A stretch of 64,000 bases of DNA from Fibrobacterota bacterium (GCA_023249635.1 JAHFCH010000003.1:36617-100616), one strand, 5' to 3'. Shown: positions 21,736-61,467, counted from the stretch's first letter. Notes: generated from the sequence alone by a model not told the origin. Numbers and translations: made by a program.

Positions 21736-23028
21736 TTACAACCCTTTCCGGAATCCGGCTAAACGCTCCACCGCCAGGGCCAAGGTCTCTTCCTTCTTGC
21801 AAAAGCAGAACCGCAGCTTATGGGCATGCGCGCCCATGCCCTTTGGCCCGCCTTTCGCCTTGTAGAACGAACTGCCCGGCACGGCCGCCACCTTGGTTTC
21901 CGCGACCAGGTAACGCGCGAGTTCCGTGTCGTCGCGGAACCGGCCCCGGCTTCCCTTGATTACGTCCGCTACGTCGGCCATCACGTAGTAGGCCCCGCGC
22001 GGCACATGGCAGCGGAAGCCCGCCGCCTCCAGCCCCGACACGATGAAATCGCGGCGCGTGCGGTAATGCTCCGCCAGATCCCGATAGAACTCCGGCCCCA
22101 ATCCCAGGGCCCCGCGCACGGCCTCCTGCAACGGCGTGGCCGCGCACACAGTCATGAAGTCGTGCACCTTGCGCAGCCCGTCAGTGATGGATTCATGGGC
22201 CACCGCCCAGCCTACGCGCCAGCCCGTGATTCCGTAGGTCTTGGAGGCGCTGCCGATCGTCACGGTGCGATCCTCCAAGCCGGCGATCGAGGCCGGGCTC
22301 ACGTGTACGGCCCCATCATAGAGGATATGCTCGTAGATCTCGTCCGAGAAAACCCGCGTGTTCCACTTTTGGCACAGCTTGGCGATCAGGACAAGTTCGT
22401 CCCGGGTGAAAACCTTGCCGGTGGGATTATGCGGCGTGCAGATCACGATGGCGGCTGTCTTGGGGCCGAATGCGCGCGCCAACTCCCGCTCATCGATGGA
22501 CCAATCCGGCTCGCGTAATGTCACGTAAACCGGCTTGGCCCCGCTGAGGTAGGCATCCGGATGGTAGTTCTCGTAGAACGGCTGGAAGAGGATGACTTCT
22601 TTGCCGGGATCGAGGGACGACATGAAAGCGCAAATCATGGCCTCGGTGGCGCCGCAGGTCACGGTAACGTTTTTGTCCGCATCCGCCTTGATCCCATTGT
22701 ACTCGCCAACCTTCTTGGCGATGGCTTGCCGTAATGCCGGCATGCCCCAGGTGACCGAGTATTGGTTGTAGTCCGCGTCCACGGCGGCGCGGGCAAGATC
22801 CTTAAGGACCGGGTCGCAGGGGAAATCGGGAAAGCCTTGGGCCAGGTTGACGGCGCCATGCAGATGGGCCATGCGCGTCTGCTCGCGGATGACCGACTCG
22901 GTGAAATCCCTCAGGCGCAAGGCCGGGACCATGGCGGCGAGTGCCGGGGCGGCTTTCGCCGACCGCTGGGATTTGGATTTGGAACTAGGCTTGGGCTTGG
23001 GCTTGGTCTTAGGCTTGGGCATCGGCAA
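21736..23028 (-). CDS. PLP-dependent aminotransferase class I/II (kynurenine/methionine aminotransferase-like) with Lys/Pro-rich N-terminal extension
   Basis: VNLAQGFPDFP, CTPHNPTGKVF and SASKTYGITGWRVGW (PLP lysine) are present. The N-terminus MPMPKPKTKPKPKPSSKSKSQRSAKAAPA is histone-H1-like; the true start could be the internal MVPALRL (~22932). Confidence 0.85.
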   Translation of the reverse strand: MPMPKPKTKPKPKPSSKSKSQRSAKAAPALAAMVPALRLRDFTESVIREQTRMAHLHGAVNLAQGFPDFPCDPVLKDLARAAVDADYNQYSVTWGMPALRQAIAKKVGEYNGIKADADKNVTVTCGATEAMICAFMSSLDPGKEVILFQPFYENYHPDAYLSGAKPVYVTLREPDWSIDERELARAFGPKTAAIVICTPHNPTGKVFTRDELVLIAKLCQKWNTRVFSDEIYEHILYDGAVHVSPASIAGLEDRTVTIGSASKTYGITGWRVGWAVAHESITDGLRKVHDFMTVCAATPLQEAVRGALGLGPEFYRDLAEHYRTRRDFIVSGLEAAGFRCHVPRGAYYVMADVADVIKGSRGRFRDDTELARYLVAETKVAAVPGSSFYKAKGGPKGMGAHAHKLRFCFCKKEETLALAVERLAGFRKGL

Positions 23029-33605: not shown

Positions 33606-34313
33606 TCAGGCATCCAGGGTAAACGGCGTGAAGCGGGTCTTGCGATCGTAGAAGTCTTCGCTCTCGGCCCGCTTGAGAAAGCCAACCACCCGGTAGGTCA
33701 CCGGCGTCATCACCACTTCCCACCCGGTCTTGAGGAAGTACTGCATCACCGTCACCTTTAATACGTCCCCGGTGGCCCAGATGCCGGCGAAGGCGATGAA
33801 GTAGAACAGGGACGAGTCCACGGCTTCGCCGACCAAGGTCGAGCCGATGGTGCGCACCCATAGCCATTTTCCTTCGGTGCGGATCTTGAGCTTGGCCAGC
33901 ACGAAACTGTTGGCGAAGCTGCCGGACCAGAAGGCGATCATGGAACCCGCCGCGATTCGCCAGGCATTGCCGAAAACGCCTTCCAACTGACCCTGGTACG
34001 ACTTCATCCAATCGCTCTGCGCGGCGGGCAGATGTACCACCACCCAGGCCATGAGGGATGCGAAGGCCAAGGCGCCGAAGCCCGCCCATACCACGCGGCG
34101 GTCCCGCGCGTAGCCGTACACCTCGGTGAGGATATCCCCAAAGATATACGAGATAGGGAAGAATAGGACCCCGGCCCCGAAGGTCACGGTTCCCAGAATG
34201 GGAAAGGTCACGGTTGCCTGCTTGGCCGCGCCGATGAAATTGGAGCAAAGGAGCACGGTCACGAAGGCGGCCATCACCAGGTCGTAGTATTTGTAGGTAC
34301 GGTGTTTATCCAT
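33606..34313 (-). CDS. yhhQ: queuosine precursor transporter (YhhQ / VUT family, DUF165)
   Basis: YDLVMAAFVTVLLCSNFIGAAK...FPISYIFGDILTEVYGY...VWAGFGA are characteristic of YhhQ/VUT. 6 TM. Confidence 0.75.
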   Translation of the reverse strand: MDKHRTYKYYDLVMAAFVTVLLCSNFIGAAKQATVTFPILGTVTFGAGVLFFPISYIFGDILTEVYGYARDRRVVWAGFGALAFASLMAWVVVHLPAAQSDWMKSYQGQLEGVFGNAWRIAAGSMIAFWSGSFANSFVLAKLKIRTEGKWLWVRTIGSTLVGEAVDSSLFYFIAFAGIWATGDVLKVTVMQYFLKTGWEVVMTPVTYRVVGFLKRAESEDFYDRKTRFTPFTLDA

Positions 34314-34341
34314 GGACTCTCTCTGTGGTCGTTGCTTCGTT

Positions 34342-34430
34342 AGGTTTAAGGTTAAAGGTTTAAGGTAGGTAGGTCTCGTAGGCCCGGTCGGGTCGCCCCC
34401 TTAAACCTTAGACCTTAGACCTTAAACCTT
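34342..34430. repeat. intergenic long imperfect hairpin whose two arms are tandem 7-nt repeats (AGGTTTA-like / CCTTARA x4)
   Basis: Left arm aggtttaaggttaaaggtttaaggtaggtagg (34342..34373). Right arm ccttaaaccttagaccttagaccttaaacctt (34399..34430). Outer 10 bp pair perfectly. GC-rich loop tctcgtaggcccggtcgggtcgccc. Lies between the rnhA stop and the yhhQ start. AT-rich in a high-GC genome. Confidence 0.6.
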
Positions 34431-34439
34431 TCTTCGTTT

Positions 34440-34904
34440 TCACCCATACCCCTCATCCACCGCCAGCTCCGCTCCCGCCGCCGCCGCATTCGCGAGTTCG
34501 TCGCAGCGTTCGTTCTCGGGGACTCCCGAATGGCCTTTGACCCAGGCGAAGCGCACGTCGTGGCGCGAGCACAGGTCCAGCAGGCGTTCCCATAGATCGG
34601 GATTCATGGCCATCTGCTTATCGGGTTTGCGCCAGCCGTTGCGTTTCCACTTCTGGGCCCAGCCCTTCTCCACGGCGTCGACCACGTATTTGGAATCGGA
34701 GTGGAGCAGCACGCGGCTGCGGGCCTTAAGGGCTTCCAGGCCGGCGATGGCGCCCATCAACTCCATGCGGTTGTTGGTGGTGCGCTTGTAGCCGGCGCTC
34801 AGTTCCTTGCGGTTGTCCTTGTACAGGAGCACGGTGCCGTAGCCGCCGGGGCCGGGATTGCCGAGGCAGGCGCCGTCGGCATAGATCGTGATGAGTTCAT
34901 CCAC
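34440..34904 (-). CDS. rnhA: ribonuclease HI
   Basis: [44 protein letters not shown]...NERCDELA match the RNase H catalytic DEDD context. Confidence 0.9.
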
Positions 34905-47913: not shown

Positions 47914-48016
47914 GGCGGTTCCTCCCGGGATTTTCGATCGGGGGGAAGATAAAGAAAAAGCCCGGCGGGACGCCAGGCTTTTATGGGAGAGAATGTCCGC
48001 GGTTGCGGGAGGCTAT

Positions 48017-54594: not shown

Positions 54595-56196
54595 TCAGCG
54601 ATCGAGAAGCCCATGCTCAACCGCATACAGCGCAGCCGCGGCGCGGGTGGAAGCCCCGATCTTGGCGTAGATATGCTGGATATGATGGCCGACGGTCTTG
54701 GCCGAAATGCACAAGGCGTTCCCGGTCTGCTTATTGGAAAGGCCCCGGGCCATCAGGCGCAGGACTTCGATTTCGCGGGCGCTGAGATCGGCCGCGGCTT
54801 TCCCCGGAGCCCGGCCGGGCGCGGGCGCATGGCCGGCGGTCTCCAAGACCGCCTCCACCGCGGTCGCATCCAGCCTGCCCGACTTCGCTTCCCGGCGCAA
54901 TTCCTCCGCGGCCGCCGCAGCCGTCAGGGCCTTACGATGGGGCCGGTCTTCGCGCATGGCCTGGTACGTGTCCGCGGCAGCCAACAGACGCGCCGCCATT
55001 GGCAGGTTGGCTCCGGCAGCCCGCTTATGGTATCCCGAACCGTCCAGCCTTTCATGATGTAAAGCGGCCAACCCGGAAAGTCGCGCCAGCGCGGGCGACC
55101 TCGCCAGTATCCGTTCCGTGAAGTAGGGGTGCATGCGCACCCGTTCCCATTCGCCTTCGTCGAGAGCCCTGGGCTTGCCCCAGATGCCCGCTGAAACCCC
55201 GACCCGGCCGATATCCTGCAGCCAGGCCGCGCGTTTTACGTCCCTCGCTTCGTCCGGCGTAAGTCCCGCGCGCGCCGCCGCTCCCGTGACCAGTGAGGCC
55301 ACGGCGCGGGAATGCCCGAGTACGTAGGGAGATTTGAAATCGGTGAAGTCGGAGATGGCGATCAGGGCCTCATCCAACCGGTCGGCGGCGATGCGCGCCT
55401 TGGTCCCGGGCTCGGCCGCGAGCACGGCATCCCACACCGAAGGCACCGCCAACGGCGCCATCAGGGCCTCGGCATCCTTCAGGAAAAGCGCGGCCAGATC
55501 CGGATCGTACATGCCGCCCGCGCGCCTGCCTACCGCTTCCAGCACCGCGGGTTTGCCCCCGGCGCTGAACAGGGTGGCCGCGTCTTGGGCCAGATGCACG
55601 ACGCGCACTTCAAGGGCGATGGCGTTGCCCTTAAGCTCACTGGGCGTGCCTTTCCCATCCCAACGGCTGTAGATCTGGCGGAACAATAGGGGAAGGCCGG
55701 GATCGATGGCGAGCCGCTCCGCCAGCCGCTCGGCCACTTCGCAATGCGACATGTGGTTCTCGCGCTTCAACGCCTGCCCTCCCGCCATCAACTTGGCGAG
55801 GATGGCGATGCGTTGCGGCAGGGGCTTATCCTTTGCCACCACCGTGAACAAGAACCGCAAGGCTTCCGCGGGATTCTCCAGATCGAGCTCGAAACCCTCA
55901 GCCATGCCCAGATCGCCGCCGAAATCCCGCGCCGCCGCGGCCGAGGTGGAGGTGCATCCGATATGCCGGAGCAAGGCGAGGTAGTACAGGTTGCGGCGAC
56001 GGGCGGGTTCGAGCCCGGCGGCTTCGCCCAGGCGCATGGCCATCAGGCAGGATCGCAGCATCCACTCCATGGGCATCCCCACGCCCAGATCGATTGCGAA
56101 GGAAAGCGAAGCGATCAACTCCGCCATGCGCATGGAATCGTCGCGGGAGGGAGCGGTAGGCGGGACGGCCGGGGCTGCGCTATCGCCCGGGGTCAT
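54595..56196 (-). CDS. transcriptional regulator with tandem HD-type domains (second one HD-GYP-like) and C-terminal LuxR HTH
   Basis: HSRAVASLVTG...AAWLQDIGRV (HD...LHDIGK-like) and HHERLDGSGYHK (HHExxDGxGY-H, an HD-GYP-like variant). The N-terminal domain has a degenerate LLRHIGC. C-terminal LSAREIEVLRLMARGLSNKQTGNALCISAKTVGHHIQHIYAKIG is a LuxR HTH. Start placed at the Met whose ATG overlaps the upstream stop (ATGA); the track's N-terminal 123 aa are low-complexity. Confidence 0.65.
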   Translation of the reverse strand: MTPGDSAAPAVPPTAPSRDDSMRMAELIASLSFAIDLGVGMPMEWMLRSCLMAMRLGEAAGLEPARRRNLYYLALLRHIGCTSTSAAAARDFGGDLGMAEGFELDLENPAEALRFLFTVVAKDKPLPQRIAILAKLMAGGQALKRENHMSHCEVAERLAERLAIDPGLPLLFRQIYSRWDGKGTPSELKGNAIALEVRVVHLAQDAATLFSAGGKPAVLEAVGRRAGGMYDPDLAALFLKDAEALMAPLAVPSVWDAVLAAEPGTKARIAADRLDEALIAISDFTDFKSPYVLGHSRAVASLVTGAAARAGLTPDEARDVKRAAWLQDIGRVGVSAGIWGKPRALDEGEWERVRMHPYFTERILARSPALARLSGLAALHHERLDGSGYHKRAAGANLPMAARLLAAADTYQAMREDRPHRKALTAAAAAEELRREAKSGRLDATAVEAVLETAGHAPAPGRAPGKAAADLSAREIEVLRLMARGLSNKQTGNALCISAKTVGHHIQHIYAKIGASTRAAAALYAVEHGLLDR

Positions 56197-57704
56197 GGGG
56201 CCCGCGGGGTCCGGAAACGCGCTGGCAGCAGGCCGCGCAGTTCGGCGGGCCGGAGCATCCCCGTCACGAAAGGCAGCAGCCAGAAGGCGGCCAGGGGTCC
56301 CAGGCGCATGCTCCACGTAAAGCGTTCGGGTTCCATCTGTACGCCCGTTCCGAAGGCCCAACCGGCCGCCAGCCAGCCGAGCAGTGGGAGCATACGCGGC
56401 CAGCGGATGGCGATGGGGAAGAGTTGCTGGCTTTTGCGGGTGATCAAAACAGCGATCACAAGGTAACATACGATGGCGGTGAGCGTCGCTCCCCACAGGC
56501 CCAGCGCCGGGATGAGCAGGAAATTCCCCGCCAGGGTCACGACCACTCCCGCGCCGTTTATCCACATCAGGTGCCGGGTCTGCTTGGCAAGGTAAAGACC
56601 CAGGGTGAAATTCACGACCCAGGCCTGGGCCAGGTAGGCCAGCAGCACGCCGGGAACGATTTCAAGCCCGGGCCAATAGGCAGGGGCGATGAGAGGACGG
56701 CCGGCGATGGGCAGGGCGACGAGCTTATCGAGGAAGGCCATCAGGGTAACGGCCGCGTAACCTACGGCGGTGAGGAAATAAAACAACACGCGTCCGAACA
56801 GGTCCGCGGCGTCCGCGTCCTTGTGGCGCTGCTGGAAGAAAGGCTGCCAGGCCATGCGGTACATCTGTACCAGCAGCAATCCGAACACGCCCAGCTTCCA
56901 CGCGGCCGAGAAGATGCCCGCCAGTTGCAGCACGTCGTAGCCGCGCCCCGGGTACAAGCGCTCGATGTCTTCGGGCTTGATCATGCGCATGAATACGCGC
57001 CCCGCCATCTCGTTGACGATGCCATAAAGCCCCGCCGGCACCAGGGGCAGGCCGAAGCGGAGCAGCGAGGCGAACACCTCGCGCCGCGGGGCCGAGAACG
57101 CATTGCGGCCCAGCACCGGGATCTGCGCCAGGACGGTAAGCGCGCTGGCGACCAGGTTGGCGAGGAAGACGCCCTCCAGCCCCATGCGCCATTTGAGCAC
57201 GAAGACCAGATTGGCCGCGATGTTCACCGCCACGTTACCCAAGCGCAAGGCCGCGAACCGAGTGGGCCGATGCTCCAACCGCAGATGGGCGAAAGGGACC
57301 ACCGTCAGGGTGTCAAGCACGAGGATGGCGGCGGAATAGTAGAAGAGGGACCGGCTGGCGGCGGGGATGAGGAACAGCTTCGCCAGGGGCCCGGTCACCA
57401 CCAGCAACGGCAGGGAGAACAGCATCGATCCGACGGCCTGCCCCCAGAAAGCGCTCGCGAACAACCGCTTGCGCCCGGCCGTATCGGCATCGTTCGCCAA
57501 CCGGAGGTAGGCCGAGTCGAACCCGAATTGGTAGACGATGTTGAGGAACGCGATCATGGCGAACAGAATGTTCTGGATGCCGAAATCGGAGGGCAGCAGC
57601 ACGTGGGTGTAGAAAGGGACCAGGAGGAAATTGAGGAAGCGGCTGGCGATGGAGGAAACGCCGTAGATCAGGGATTCCTTCGCGAGGGCGCGGATGCGGC
57701 TCAA
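56193..57704 (-). CDS. MOP-superfamily polysaccharide biosynthesis/flippase protein (Wzx-like)
   Basis: 503 aa with ~14 TM segments. N-terminal LAKESLIYGVSSIASRFLNFLLVPFYTHVL is typical of Polysacc_synt (Wzx/MurJ-like) proteins. Confidence 0.7.
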   Translation of the reverse strand: MSRIRALAKESLIYGVSSIASRFLNFLLVPFYTHVLLPSDFGIQNILFAMIAFLNIVYQFGFDSAYLRLANDADTAGRKRLFASAFWGQAVGSMLFSLPLLVVTGPLAKLFLIPAASRSLFYYSAAILVLDTLTVVPFAHLRLEHRPTRFAALRLGNVAVNIAANLVFVLKWRMGLEGVFLANLVASALTVLAQIPVLGRNAFSAPRREVFASLLRFGLPLVPAGLYGIVNEMAGRVFMRMIKPEDIERLYPGRGYDVLQLAGIFSAAWKLGVFGLLLVQMYRMAWQPFFQQRHKDADAADLFGRVLFYFLTAVGYAAVTLMAFLDKLVALPIAGRPLIAPAYWPGLEIVPGVLLAYLAQAWVVNFTLGLYLAKQTRHLMWINGAGVVVTLAGNFLLIPALGLWGATLTAIVCYLVIAVLITRKSQQLFPIAIRWPRMLPLLGWLAAGWAFGTGVQMEPERFTWSMRLGPLAAFWLLPFVTGMLRPAELRGLLPARFRTPRAP

Positions 57705-57759
57705 GAGTCCGCCGTGGTCTGTACTTCGTTCGTCGGGCGTACAGCGCGAAGCGCGCCTA

Positions 57760-57870
57760 GGCGTCGGGCGTCGGGCGTAAAGAAAAGAGTTCTCGGGAAG
57801 GAGTTGTAGTGAATTGCGGCGGCTGCCGCCCTTTTCTTTACGCCCGACGCCCGACGCCCGACGCCCGACG
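57760..57870. repeat. intergenic 28-bp perfect-stem hairpin built from tandem heptamer repeats (GCGTCGG / ACGCCCG x4) with a 43-nt loop
   Basis: 57762..57787 cgtcgggcgtcgggcgtaaagaaaag is the exact reverse complement of 57831..57856. Pairing extends to 28 bp. The right arm continues as (ACGCCCG)4 to 57870. An extra cgtcgggcgta copy lies at ~57731. The loop contains the sub-hairpin ggcggctgccgcc. Located between the phosphoesterase stop and the flippase start. Confidence 0.65.
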
Positions 57871-57893
57871 ATACGCTCATAGATCCGGAAAGC

Positions 57894-58625
57894 TTATCGG
57901 CCTTCCGACAACCTGTTAATCAGGAATTCCGCGAAGCCGCTCTTCTTCATCGCGGCTTGCGTCTTGGAAATGTCGTAGGCCACGCGGATCACTTCCACGG
58001 ACATCTTCTCCGTGTCGCACAAGCACCACGAGGCGAGCGGATTGCGATCGCGGGGCTGGCCCACGCTCCCATCGTTCACCAGGATGCGCTGATTGGGCTC
58101 CAGGGTGTAGATAAGGCTTTCCGAGACCTTGAAGGATTGCTCGCCTTCCATGATCACGATAATGGGCCAATGGGTATGGCCGATGAAGCAGATCTTCTCG
58201 GTGAAAAAGGAAAAGGCGTCCACGGCATCATCGAGGCTGGAGACGTATTTCCAATCGGCCGGGGACCAGGGGCTGGCATGCACGAAGAGCAGCGGCGGTT
58301 CCGAGACCATGTAGGGAAGCTTGGAGAAGAATTCGATGGAGGCCGGGGTGAGTACCTTGCTGGTCCACTCGATGGCCTTCTGGGCGTTGTAATTGTTCCA
58401 ACCCTCGGCGGACTCGCGGCCGATGGCCACGCTGTCATGATTCCCAAGGATGGTGATATCGCTGTTCTCGGCGACGAGTTCTACGCACTCGTTGGGAAAG
58501 GGACCGTACCCGACGATGTCCCCCAGGCATACGCGCTTCTCAACGCCCAAGCGCTTCATCGACTCAAGCACGCGTTGCAGCGCTTCAAGGTTGCCGTGTA
58601 TGTCCGAGTAGATCCCGTACTTCAT
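57894..58625 (-). CDS. metallophosphoesterase (calcineurin-like, YfcE/MJ0936-type)
   Basis: Motifs IYSDIHGN, GDIVGYG, GNHD, GHTH in canonical order. Start at internal Met MKYGIYSDIHGN. Confidence 0.8.
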   Translation of the reverse strand: MKYGIYSDIHGNLEALQRVLESMKRLGVEKRVCLGDIVGYGPFPNECVELVAENSDITILGNHDSVAIGRESAEGWNNYNAQKAIEWTSKVLTPASIEFFSKLPYMVSEPPLLFVHASPWSPADWKYVSSLDDAVDAFSFFTEKICFIGHTHWPIIVIMEGEQSFKVSESLIYTLEPNQRILVNDGSVGQPRDRNPLASWCLCDTEKMSVEVIRVAYDISKTQAAMKKSGFAEFLINRLSEGR

Positions 58626-58692
58626 ACGATCCAATTATATCCAAAATATCCAAAAAGCCGCCGAAGCGGGCGCCTCAACGCCAAAACTAGCA

Positions 58693-61467
58693 TTATTTGG
58701 CCGGGGAAACGTCGGGCTTGAGGGAGAGATCGGTCGACTTGCCGGCCAGCGCCGAGGTCGGATCGTCCCAAGCGGCGCCCGCGGTACGGTCCGGATCCTG
58801 GGCGCAACGGAACCCGACTTTGAAGTTACGGAAGCCCGGCCGATTGTTATAGCGGGCGGTGAGGCTGAGGGATCCCGATTCGCTGTACCAGCTCGCACCG
58901 CGGATAACCTTGGCGGTACCGGCGCCTGGGCCCTTGGGATGGTCCACCTCGACCTGGCTGTAGTCTCCGTACCAGTCCTGCACCCATTCGAACACGTTGC
59001 CGGCCATATCGTATAGACCCCAGCCGTTCGGTTTCTTTGAGCCCACCTTCTGGGTACGATTCTCGGAATTGTCCCGGTACCAAGCGTAATCCTTCGGACT
59101 CTCGACGCCCCAATAGAAGGTGGACGCGCTGCCGGCGCGGGCCGCGTATTCCCATTCCGCTTCGGTAGGCAAACGACCCCCGGTTTCGCGGCAGAAGGCA
59201 TCGGCCTCTTCCCAGGTCACCCGATCCACGGGCAGGCTGTCCTGCAGGCGGTAGGAGGGATTGCGTCCCGTGAACTTCTCGAACTCGGTCTGGGTCACTT
59301 CGTACTTGCCGAGGAAAAGCGGACCCACCTTAACGAGGCGGCCATCGTCGCGGCGGTAGCTGCCTTTGGGAACGAATACCAGCGGATAGTAGGCCGGGAT
59401 GCCCTTGGGAGGTTGCGGCAGCACGGGCTCCAGGCTCTTGGTGGAAAAGGAGCGGACCGGGCCTTCGCTATGATCGAGGCCATCGCTCGCGATCACCTTC
59501 CAGTAGTAGGTGGTACCGGGCTTGAGATCGGAAATGGACAACACCGAATCGATCAGATTGCCGGCCCGTAACACCAGGGGCGGGAATTTGGTGTCCAGAT
59601 ACACGGAGTATTGCACCTTGGCGCCCGCATCGGGATCGCCACCCTTCCAGGAGAGCAACAGGGGCACGGAATCCGGGACCAAAGCGCCGGAATCGGGGAA
59701 AGCCGCGAGCGGCATGAAGGGTGGGCGATTGGCTGCCGGGGAATTGAAGACCACGCCTTCGGGCGGGAAGGGTGCGCCGTAGCCGAACGCGTTGACGCCA
59801 ATGGCGCGGAAGCGGTACTGGCTGCTGGGCTTTAACCCGGCCAAACGGATTTTCGGGACCGGAGCCCGGTCGAGTACGGTCTCCCAGGGTCCTGAGCCCA
59901 GGCGCTGTTGAACGAGGTAATAATCCGAGCGCGGGAAGGTTTGGCATTGCAAGGCCACGCGGTTGCTATCGGACAGTTTCAGGAACAAGGTGCCTTCGCG
60001 CGGGGGCGAGAGCACGGTCTGTTCGCGATTGAACAGGAGGAAATTGCGCAATGAGGAAGGGCCCGTGAAGTTGGTCCGGGTTTCCATGAAGATGTTTGCG
60101 CCCAAGGTCAGTTCCTTGTTGCCGATGCCGTAGACCCGCGTTTCGCCGGTGGCGGCCGTGAAGGCGCGCGAGGAGAGTGTCAAAGCGGAGGATTCCGCGG
60201 CGGGAACCGGAGAGGGGACCAAGGCCAATGCGGCGCCCGATCCGGGGGCGACCCAGCTTTGCCCAGGACCCGCGGAACCGCCGGGACCGCCGGGACCGGT
60301 CATGGACGCCATCCCGGGAGCGGTCACGGCCGGCGCGGATGCGAAGCGGGCGTAAGGTTCGAAGGTGAAGACCGGGCCCTGTACGCCTTCGAGCAGCATT
60401 TCGATGCGGGGCTTCAAGGCGACATTCACTTCGCCGTTGCCCCACAGGTTCTGGAGGGATTTGTTGGCCCAAGTCATCTTGTTCTCGGCCAGCGGCCGCC
60501 ATTGGCCGTCGCGGTAGCCCAGTTCGCCTTTGATGGAATTGCGGATACGGAAATCGGCTTGGGCCGAGAATACGTCCCCGGCATTGCGCGCCTCGATACG
60601 GAGGAAGGGACGGTTCTGCATGCGCAGGAAAAGCCCGGAGCCCAAAGGCAGCAGCATGGGGGATTTGCCGGGCAGTTCTTCCTCGAATTCGAACTCGCCT
60701 TTGCCCGCCACCGTGGCGTTGAGATTGGCCATCACTTCGCAATCGCCGTTCACCTGGAAATTGAAGAGCTCGACCTTGCCGTTGCGCACCTGGATGCGGC
60801 CGGTTACCACAGGCTGGAAAAGCACCTGGGCCGACTTGATACCGATATCCAGACGTCCGAAGGCAGAGGCGGCTTCACCTGTCCCGTCTTCAAGGCGGGT
60901 TGCGAGCAGACCCGTCAAGTCTTGGGATTGATGCAGATCGCCAAGGGCTTGGTTCATATCCAGCCGGGATTTGAAAGAAATATCGCAATCCTGTACGGCA
61001 TCCGGTAAATCCGCTTCTTCGGTCTTCAGCAGCCAGCGCCGTCCCAGAGAGCCGGGTTGCGGTTGCGGATCAACCTCCACCACCTTGCGCAGCAATCCGC
61101 CGAAAGCGGTATCGGCCAATACATTGCCAATCTGCGGTAGCACGCCCGTAGGCAACTCCAGGATCATGCTGCCGGGGGTGGGAGCGTATTCGATGATTTT
61201 GCCCTGCCCGGGCAGGGTGAGGTCGAGGAAGCCCGCGGTAAAGCGCGTGGGCGCAGCCCCCAACTCCTCGACGAAGATGGCGTTCTCGATCTCGTAGCCT
61301 TCCACCCGGATCTTGGAGAGATCCGGCGATTGCACGGAATCGTCGAAGGTGATGACGAGGGTACGCTGGCCCACTGCGGCATTCTCGACCTGGATCTGCC
61401 CCAACGCAAAAGCGCCGGAGCTGAAGCCCGCCGTGAAAAGCACCGCATGCCGTAATCGCGCGTACAT
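58693..61467 (-). CDS. large secreted protein with fibronectin type III domains and a C-terminal FGE-sulfatase (SUMF1/formylglycine-generating-enzyme-like) domain
   Basis: Signal-like N-terminus. FN3 segments (PSSQYRFRAIGVNAFGYGAPFPPEG; LKPGTTYYWKVIASDG). C-terminal FGE-sulfatase domain: GKYEVTQTEFEKFTGRNPS...VDRVTWEEADAFCRETGGRLPTEAEWEYAARAG...GWGLYDMAGNVFEWVQDWY...RGASW...FRCAQD. Confidence 0.7.
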   Translation of the reverse strand: MYARLRHAVLFTAGFSSGAFALGQIQVENAAVGQRTLVITFDDSVQSPDLSKIRVEGYEIENAIFVEELGAAPTRFTAGFLDLTLPGQGKIIEYAPTPGSMILELPTGVLPQIGNVLADTAFGGLLRKVVEVDPQPQPGSLGRRWLLKTEEADLPDAVQDCDISFKSRLDMNQALGDLHQSQDLTGLLATRLEDGTGEAASAFGRLDIGIKSAQVLFQPVVTGRIQVRNGKVELFNFQVNGDCEVMANLNATVAGKGEFEFEEELPGKSPMLLPLGSGLFLRMQNRPFLRIEARNAGDVFSAQADFRIRNSIKGELGYRDGQWRPLAENKMTWANKSLQNLWGNGEVNVALKPRIEMLLEGVQGPVFTFEPYARFASAPAVTAPGMASMTGPGGPGGSAGPGQSWVAPGSGAALALVPSPVPAAESSALTLSSRAFTAATGETRVYGIGNKELTLGANIFMETRTNFTGPSSLRNFLLFNREQTVLSPPREGTLFLKLSDSNRVALQCQTFPRSDYYLVQQRLGSGPWETVLDRAPVPKIRLAGLKPSSQYRFRAIGVNAFGYGAPFPPEGVVFNSPAANRPPFMPLAAFPDSGALVPDSVPLLLSWKGGDPDAGAKVQYSVYLDTKFPPLVLRAGNLIDSVLSISDLKPGTTYYWKVIASDGLDHSEGPVRSFSTKSLEPVLPQPPKGIPAYYPLVFVPKGSYRRDDGRLVKVGPLFLGKYEVTQTEFEKFTGRNPSYRLQDSLPVDRVTWEEADAFCRETGGRLPTEAEWEYAARAGSASTFYWGVESPKDYAWYRDNSENRTQKVGSKKPNGWGLYDMAGNVFEWVQDWYGDYSQVEVDHPKGPGAGTAKVIRGASWYSESGSLSLTARYNNRPGFRNFKVGFRCAQDPDRTAGAAWDDPTSALAGKSTDLSLKPDVSPAK

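Follow-up and report, generated by a model that had tools for sequence, protein, structure and literature searches.

We analysed a 64,000-nt stretch of DNA from a Fibrobacterota bacterium (GCA_023249635.1 JAHFCH010000003.1:36617-100616), referred to below as the window, in which a long palindrome built from 7-nt repeats lies between a phosphoesterase gene and a flippase gene. We call this palindrome E1, and a second element of the window, at 34342-34430, E2. The E1 locus contains the following features, given in the order in which they occur in gene sense, with positions counted from the first letter of the window.

57894..58625, minus strand: upstream gene, calcineurin-like metallophosphoesterase of 243 aa, stop codon TAA at 57894-57896
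57840..57870: heptamer array, 4.4 perfect copies of ACGCCCG (CGTCGGG in gene sense), from Tandem Repeats Finder
57831..57858: right arm, the 5' arm in gene sense (minus strand), with an AU-rich inner part CTTTTCTTT (57831-57839) and then heptamer units
57788..57830: apical loop of 43 nt, with a small GC hairpin GGCGGCTGCCGCC (57818-57830), also given as ggcggctgccgcc
57760..57787: left arm, 2.7 GGCGTCG units (57760-57778) and then AAAGAAAAG (57779-57787)
57741..57759: 19-nt insert that splits the left arm, with its own mini-hairpin GCGCGAAGCGCGC at 57744-57756
57730..57740: orphan unit TCGTCGGGCGT, 100% complementary to 57861-57871, giving an outer stem
57714..57730, minus strand: flank motif AACGAAGTACAGACCAC, directly 3' of E1 in gene sense, with a 14/17 match beside E2 (34325-34341)
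56193..57704, minus strand: downstream gene, Polysacc_synt-family flippase, TTG start at 57704

The core of E1 is a perfect inverted repeat, recovered by a repeat search, in which positions 57760-57787 are 100% complementary to 57831-57858 over 28 nt, with 43 nt between the arms. A first-pass annotation of the sequence had described this stem as the pairing of 57762-57787 with 57831-57856, extended by 2 bp, and had noted the heptamer-repeat arms, the structured loop, and the position between two minus-strand genes; all of these were found as described. The structure begins ~22 nt past the TAA of the phosphoesterase gene and ends ~25 nt short of the TTG of the flippase gene, within a spacer of 189 nt. 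On the minus strand the predicted fold has four parts: the outer stem formed by the orphan unit, the side hairpin, the 28-bp main stem, and the apical loop with its GC hairpin. The inner stem segment is AU-rich in both arms. The 2.7 GGCGTCG copies at 57760-57778 are all perfect according to Tandem Repeats Finder. The unequal copy number that the annotation attributed to the two arms is only apparent, because the left arm also has ~4 units (2.7 plus the orphan) that are split by the 19-nt insert, and the split occurs as well in a homologous element, at locus L186, that is described below. Further repeat pairs among the arms provide alternative pairing registers.

The RNA fold of E1 has an energy of -102.6 kcal/mol compared with -59.9 +/- 4.0 kcal/mol in 200 shuffles (z = -10.8), with 0/200 shuffles as good, and the single-stranded DNA fold gives z = -11.9. 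Folding the plus strand, or folding with DNA parameters, leaves the picture from the minus-strand RNA fold unchanged. A simple calculation gives ~1e-10 chance occurrences per 64 kb for a perfect inverted repeat of 28 bp confined to 150 nt. A chance origin of the palindrome, already considered very unlikely in the first-pass annotation, is excluded. An assembly artefact is ruled out by the identical sequence in other metagenome assemblies. Three ENA metagenome contigs encode the phosphoesterase, and the DNA of the two that were read, ERZ27280176 and ERZ27297344 (L001 and L002), matches the window base for base across the whole 221-nt spacer region.

At the gathering threshold, Rfam gave 0 matches in the window, and in E-value mode it returned sub-threshold generic hairpin matches to eukaryotic miRNA precursor models, with 31-39 bits against thresholds of 86-168. 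A sigma-70 consensus scan detected no promoter-like site at E1. The sole terminator-like site of the region lies within the loop on the plus strand, where CTTTTCTTT comes next after the GC hairpin and the pair scores as terminator-like (57818-57839). Across positions 1-60000 of the window, sites matching the sigma-70 promoter and terminator consensus were not enriched relative to shuffles (14 vs 18.2, 17 vs 18.5, and 17 vs 18.1). Upstream of the locus, a terminator-like hairpin with a GCTTTTTGGA tail is present at 58659-58680 on the minus strand, between an FGE-sulfatase-domain gene (58693-61467) and the phosphoesterase gene; were this hairpin functional, the phosphoesterase gene would head its transcription unit. 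A plus-strand open reading frame (ORF) of 37 codons, with a Shine-Dalgarno-like GGAAGGAG (GGAG) and a GTG at 57810, runs from the E1 loop through the repeat arm and overlaps both the repeat and the terminal part of the phosphoesterase gene; nothing supports its being coding.

Conservation of the hairpin among relatives

A scan of species-representative genomes placed the locus in a clade of uncultured Fibrobacterota/Fibrobacteria metagenome-assembled genomes (MAGs), in which phosphoesterase identity is 77-96%. The adjacency of the phosphoesterase and flippase genes is conserved in this clade and the spacer between them is highly variable. It measures 0-40 nt and has no repeat in L004, L005, L008-L013, L015, L018, L187, and L188, while L007 has 110 nt without repeats. 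Clear homologues of E1 occupy the orthologous spacer in L003 and L186. In L006 the spacer instead carries CCCTAAC x4 with a degenerate partner, and in L014 it carries TTTTCCG x4 / CGGAAAA x4 around a 46-nt loop, with variant units exactly mirrored between the arms. Three kinds of heptamer hairpin thus occupy the phosphoesterase-flippase spacer across the clade. According to the first-pass annotation, a plain short terminator here in related strains would argue against a defined element; in most relatives the spacer is indeed short and plain, yet the clade has heptamer hairpins of three kinds at this one site. The flippase start is TTG in the window versus ATG or GTG in the orthologues that were compared.

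Other repeats occur in and near this spacer. At L006:10758-10771, beside the CCCTAAC hairpin in the E1-orthologous spacer, there are two E2-like units (GGGTTTAAGGTTTC) with a partial complement GGAACCTT upstream, so that the AGGTTTA-type unit is found at two separate clade loci, E2 and the L006 spacer. The spacer after the phosphoesterase gene contains ~21-nt units in L017 and three 14-nt units (GTCCATTTTTTAAA) in L022. Another Fibrobacteria MAG has 14 perfect GTAAGTA units, unpaired, at L012:1470-1568.

The three E1-bearing lineages are old. Protein identity among the window, L003, and L186 is 93-97%, and identity at four-fold degenerate sites of the phosphoesterase gene is 0.46-0.58, where ~0.37 would be random from third-position composition. 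The 5' arm (gene sense) is nevertheless exactly 31 nt, or 4.4 units, in all three. Between the window and L003 the arms are identical (5' arm 31/31, 3' arm 19/19), whereas outside the arms the outer flanks match at only 13/30 and 21/57 positions and the loop centre at 16/29. Over all three lineages, arm identity is 84-100%, compared with ~40% for the flanks. The arms of L186 match those of the window and L003 at 26/31 and 16/19 positions, with all differences at unit position 1: its unit is [A/G]GTCGGG instead of CGTCGGG, and the opposite arm reads ACTCCCG/ACCCCCG. As a result, the main stem of L186 has two double changes, C-G to A-U and C-G to G-C, and one A-C mismatch, and its outer stem, GGTCGGGAGT with ACTCCCGACC, has the same mirrored pattern as the main stem. 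Non-repeat inner segments are also retained, CGTAAAGAAAAGGGCGGC being common to the window and L186 and AACTCTTTTCTT to the window and L003. Neither L003 nor L186 retains the loop centre or the small loop hairpin of E1. In L186 an insert of 35 nt interrupts the arm at the matching point and an orphan unit is present as well, and L003 has no insert; because L186 shares the split 3' arm and the orphan, this architecture predates the split between the window lineage and L186. Judged from these alignments, the arms have kept their length, their sequence, and their pairing as synonymous sites nearby approached saturation, and E1 is by this measure ancient within one sub-lineage of the uncultured Fibrobacterota clade.

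A second element and heptamer-array pairs elsewhere

The first-pass annotation had pointed to E2 as a counterpart of E1. The element is real and has a design in common with E1, as follows.

34342..34430: E2, AGGTTTA/CCTTAAA heptamer arms, 88% complementary, 32-38-nt loop, design as in E1
34440-34904, minus strand: RNase H gene
33606-34313, minus strand: Vut_1 / queuosine precursor transporter gene

The annotation had also pointed out that E1 adjoins surface-polysaccharide genes (flippase, WbaP). This association is weakened by E2, since the latter lies between the RNase H and queuosine-precursor-transporter genes. The E2-orthologous spacers of six relatives (82-91% transporter identity) are 9-72 nt long and contain no array, so E2 is specific to the window's lineage.

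E2 is flanked on both sides by AACGAAG, an arrangement that resembles a target-site duplication. The motif has 4 occurrences in the 64-kb window, 3 of which abut E1 or E2 on the gene-sense strand (34325-34341, 34432-34438, and 57714-57730, minus). The 3' flanks of both elements have a 14/17 match to AACGAAGnAnnGACCAC and are located 9-11 nt before the downstream start codons. AACGAAG is also present in the loop of the L006 element, and L003 has the form AACCGAAG. The 3' flank of E2, AACGAAGCAACGA, resembles the native L179/L181 spacer AACCGAGCAAGGA. As a family signature, AACGAAG is only partly explained, as ancestral flanking sequence at both E1 (L003 CCGAAGAA) and E2 (L179/L181 AACCGAGCAAGGA).

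Tandem arrays were surveyed for an inverted partner within 200 nt in an unbiased sample consisting of the window and the loci fetched by protein similarity. An inverted pair was found for 18/37 arrays of period 7, compared with 4/64 of period 6, 4/23 of period 8, 0/39 of period 9, and 0/35 of period 12. Inverted pairing is thus tied strongly to the 7-nt period, with about half of the heptamer arrays paired versus 0-17% for other periods. The arms typically have 3-5 units, for G-rich units and others alike, and the units are wholly different from locus to locus, including CGTCGGG, AGGTTTA, GTTAGGG, CGGAAAA, and AGTTCAA. The Chloroflexota locus L040 has five paired arrays in 20 kb, and its relative L038 has the same GGAGATT unit in an orthologous convergent spacer with a four-fold identity of 0.54-0.76. 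Like elements are found directly past stop codons in L038/L040, L147, L137, and L126, in co-directional and convergent spacers; the automatic call of gene context, from ORF length and GC content at third codon positions, misassigned both window elements and is a rough indication only. The Planctomycetota loci L044 and L051 carry 6- and 8-nt versions.

The densest case is L176:1-2999, a JGI metagenome contig with a GC content of 0.69 and five heptamer hairpins in 3 kb, one per spacer, with the units GAGAGAG/GAGAGGA, CGTCGGG, CAGCTAT (6 and 9 copies), and GGTTGTC (two sites). The esterase encoded on this contig is closest to Gemmatimonadetes MAG proteins. Its CGTCGGG hairpin (L176:1263-1345) and one at L083:85-177 share their CGTCGGG arms and are almost identical in their 30-nt loops (CGCAACTGCCGAC[G/C]CTCGAACGCCTTCTCG) in different gene contexts. 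The 3' arms of both have a variant unit where E1 has its insert, and the two represent a dispersed copy of a heptamer hairpin. A metagenome scan with (CGTCGGG)x3 matched at least 120 contigs, and among the matches listed most were single arrays from unrelated GC-rich organisms, with ~13 paired. Because the CGTCGGG unit is this common, the scan says little about relatives of E1. Apart from the E1 locus, neither the window nor ~550 kb of clade DNA contains a CGTCGGG array, and when the loops of E1, E2, L003, L013, and L014 were compared by BLAST with ~1.7 Mb of fetched DNA, none had a second copy. The density of elements is 2 in the 64-kb window and ~6 in the roughly 550 kb of clade DNA.

Instances of such pairs come from Fibrobacterota, Chloroflexota, and Gemmatimonadota-like contigs, with the 6- and 8-nt versions in Planctomycetota and a published case in Xanthomonas. 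They may represent a cross-phylum class defined by structure, namely intergenic palindromes with arms of about four 7-nt units, a unit specific to each locus, and complementarity kept over long times, a grouping that we propose only tentatively and consider doubtful. If there is one class, it would reflect either a general function in cis, such as punctuation for RNase III or exonucleases, or the generation and correction of repeats in 7-nt steps; the latter mechanism, if true, would explain the dominance of heptamers among the long simple repeats of prokaryotes.

Several other repeats and sites were recorded in the course of the survey. Hairpins of one and the same octamer array (CGCAAAGG / CCTTTGCG) occur at L040:3552-3611 in a Chloroflexota MAG and at L051:11182-11282 in a Planctomycetota MAG. 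Within the window, hexamer repeats GGATTT and GGCTTG (period 6/24) at 22969-23020 probably lie in a coding region, with no relation to the hairpins. Of the canonical terminator-like sites in the window, the best is at 47956-47982 on the minus strand; it is bidirectional and consists of a 12-bp stem, AAAAGCCTGGCG-TCC-CGCCGGGCTTTT, with a T-rich tail.

Possible roles and origins of the hairpin

The explanation that we favour, and to which we would give an even chance, is that E1 acts as a long stem-loop that punctuates an operon transcript and uncouples the flippase from the upstream gene. The phosphoesterase and flippase genes would form one transcription unit, as suggested by the many relatives in which they abut or are 0-40 nt apart. 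The transcript would then fold into an interrupted ~40-bp stem, 22 nt past the stop codon of the first cistron and 25 nt before the start codon of the second. Such a stem could block 3'-to-5' exonucleases, offer a long perfect stretch of double-stranded RNA of the kind cut by RNase III, and pause RNA polymerase or attenuate read-through, with the outcome that the fates of the two cistrons would be separated. Slippage of 7-nt units probably gave rise to the arms, and their complementarity may be kept either by selection or by palindrome-templated correction. We speculate that the TTG start and the 189-nt spacer fit reduced, uncoupled expression of the flippase in the window's lineage. The fixed arm length and the compensatory change of unit, in the midst of synonymous saturation, are the signature of a maintained structure and not of slippage noise.

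Several observations weigh against this explanation. Most relatives are without E1, so the element is dispensable. The sense (minus) strand has no intrinsic terminator at E1 and no U-tract after the stem, which counts against a role as a canonical terminator; E1 is like intrinsic terminators in having a GC-rich stem soon after a stop codon, but these have a 3-8-nt loop followed by a U-tract, and we rejected an intrinsic terminator because of the 43-nt loop, the ~40-bp stem, and the missing sense-strand U-tract. The sense strand folds no more stably than the antisense strand, and a DNA-level role fits this symmetry equally well. Mismatches that are compatible with G-U pairing number 16 on the antisense versus 8 on the sense strand, but the events are non-independent and give no reliable strand bias. 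The covariation in L186 rests on a comparison of three sequences only, and 126/500 shuffles reach 2 double changes, so it is not significant alone. Finally, the hairpin-bearing spacers of L176 include one convergent and one divergent case.

An alternative of lesser probability, unlikely in our view but to be taken seriously, is that the palindrome is a self-maintaining by-product of mutation, in which 7-nt slippage acts on a seed hairpin and template switching, together with mispairing of units, homogenises the arms with no selection. The sporadic distribution in the clade and the presence of other units in the E1 spacer of L006 and L014 agree with such an origin, as does the lack of strand preference in folding. 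The exact mirroring of variant units in L014 is what templated copying predicts, the tie of pairing to period 7 points to a mutational mechanism, and polymerase slippage has been named as the cause of heptamer over-representation among the long repeats of prokaryotes (cited in PMC4679880). However, neutral concerted evolution predicts that the consensus drifts, and instead the unit, the 31-nt arm, and the inner segments CGTAAAGAAAAGGGCGGC and AACTCTTTTCTT are conserved. Frequent slippage should also vary the copy number, which is constant.

An improbable alternative places the function in DNA and makes transcription irrelevant: the palindrome, as a cruciform, or the heptamers could be bound by a nucleoid-associated, topological, or recombination factor, or the repeats could form a G-quadruplex. 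The conservation of unit sequence beyond what pairing demands, in the E1 orthologues and in L038 compared with L040, would be expected from such a role, as would the symmetry of the strands and the stability of the single-stranded DNA fold. The gene-sense (GGGCGTC)x4 also fits the G3N4 quadruplex pattern discussed for Xanthomonas (PMC4692102). Against this, no single sequence-specific binder could serve units that differ completely by locus; most units lack G-tracts and yet occur in ~4 copies; and in E1 a three-tetrad quadruplex would lose out to the perfect complement 43 nt away.

More improbable still is an insertion into the spacer, with E1 as a foldback or MITE (miniature inverted-repeat transposable element) type of element that is mobile but non-autonomous and whose long terminal inverted repeats consist of tandem sub-repeats. 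The presence/absence polymorphism at orthologous spacers could be read in this way, and so could the 7-bp direct repeat AACGAAG at E2, the 3' copy of which lies in native-spacer-like sequence, the CTATaaGAGAG / CTATccGAGAG flanks of the L013 element, and the shared arms and 30-nt loop of L083 and L176 in different gene contexts. E1, however, is without a flanking direct repeat, and across 41 paired arrays flanking direct repeats are barely above a shuffled-partner control, with a perfect 7-mer only at E2. The loops have no second copy in the ~1.7 Mb, CGTCGGG arrays occur only at E1 in the ~550 kb of clade DNA, a scan of neighbouring ORFs against Pfam identified no linked transposase, and E1 occupies a single fixed site in three old lineages.

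A role on the plus (antisense) strand, such as a terminator for a small antisense RNA complementary to the 5' end of the flippase gene, is highly unlikely. It would account for the sole terminator-like site of the region being on that strand, with GGCGGCTGCCGCC then CTTTTCTTT at 57818-57839, for the slightly better antisense fold in E2, L014, and L006, and for the tolerated mismatches of E2 and L186 being G-U on the antisense strand. Yet the loop hairpin is not conserved in L003 or L186, there is no promoter-like site, the mismatch bias is not significant, and the U-rich tract is merely the inner stem segment of the palindrome. Hardly credible is the contingency-type (phase-variable) locus proposed in the first-pass annotation, in which slippage would alter the heptamer number and switch or tune the flippase: E1 is a simple sequence repeat that precedes a gene for surface polysaccharide, alternative pairing registers exist, and the hmw1 heptamer repeat is a precedent (PMC12721329), but the three assemblies are identical, the stable copy number and kept pairing of the 31-nt arm across three lineages near synonymous saturation argue against such a locus, the arms have ~4 units versus 11 or more in hmw1 (PMC12721329), and E2 stands beside housekeeping genes.

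Transcript punctuation, if it is the function of E1, would provide a simple marker of post-transcriptional operon partitioning in poorly studied phyla.

Comparison with known systems

The closest known system is formed by the GGGAATC arrays of Xanthomonas, which prefer four units and lie between aligned ORFs, at most 50 bp from a stop codon (Rehm et al. 2015; PMC4692102). These arrays are mostly transcribed, and each genome has 70-75 convergent inverted pairs with the potential to form stem-loops (PMC4692102). There are ~185 arrays of one unit family genome-wide, with the consensus GGGNATC, and the array type, single or paired, is usually kept between species; the authors invoke G-quadruplexes (PMC4692102). 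Like the Xanthomonas pairs, E1 consists of convergent complementary arrays, of 4.4 units in one arm and 2.7 plus the orphan in the other, that are separated by a 43-nt spacer and fold into a stem-loop, and it is located between co-oriented ORFs ~22 nt past a stop codon with the G-rich arm, (CGTCGGG)x4, on the sense strand. In contrast to the single Xanthomonas family, the unit of E1 (CGTCGGG) differs from that of E2 (AGGTTTA), and units are locus-specific and sparse in the DNA examined; the loops here are also long (32-61 nt) and structured. The quadruplex account of the preference for four units in Xanthomonas cannot cover the non-G-rich units found here, which are unable to form quadruplexes and yet also favour arrays of about four. 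In the published record, the inverted pairing of heptamer arrays was noted only in passing, for Xanthomonas.

In the 5' untranslated region of Haemophilus influenzae hmw1, an ATCTTTC heptamer repeat forms a long RNA hairpin that is cleaved by RNase III (2025 study, PMC12721329). The hairpin is required for expression and for change in repeat number, and its integrity, not the repeat sequence alone, decides expression (PMC12721329). The heptamer repeat of E1 is similarly an arm of a predicted long RNA hairpin directly upstream of a gene for a surface structure. The hmw1 hairpin has one repeat arm with a G-rich non-repeat partner and 11 or more hypervariable units, whereas in E1 both arms have ~4 units and are fixed.

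In its location and proposed roles, E1 is like the repetitive extragenic palindromes (REPs) and their BIME and REPIN assemblies, which occur past coding regions of co-directional or convergent genes and have been proposed to stabilise mRNA or terminate transcription (PMC3733652, PMC3116915). REPs often form inverted doublets that fold into larger hairpins (PMC3733652, PMC3116915). They are 20-40-bp units with a GTAG or CGTC tag in many near-identical copies, and GTAG REPs are linked to RAYT transposases (PMC3733652, PMC3116915). E1 differs in that its arms are tandem heptamers, it is single-copy in the sequence examined, and its unit is not shared with E2. Assignment to the REP/REPIN family was rejected, as the window and the clade loci contain no second copy of the E1 arms or loop.

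The cyanobacterial STRR heptanucleotides, described by Mazel et al. in 1990, are reportedly intergenic tandem heptamers. In many bacterial genomes, no long simple repeats are more over-represented than those of heptanucleotides. Heptamers are over-represented among the long simple repeats of prokaryotes, for which polymerase slippage has been proposed, and the TAACTGA repeats of Beggiatoaceae include one inverted case among 170 sets (MacGregor, PMC4679880). E1 resembles STRR and TAACTGA repeats as an intergenic set of tandem heptamers near gene boundaries, in phylogenetically scattered lineages, but most of those are arrays in direct orientation that draw on a few unit families spread over the genome, and E1 is an inverted pair. 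E1 is thus a member of a known, little-studied kind, inverted pairs of heptanucleotide arrays, in which its phylum and its unit are new, and the tie to period 7, the four-unit rule, and the compensatory change make this class worth a systematic census.

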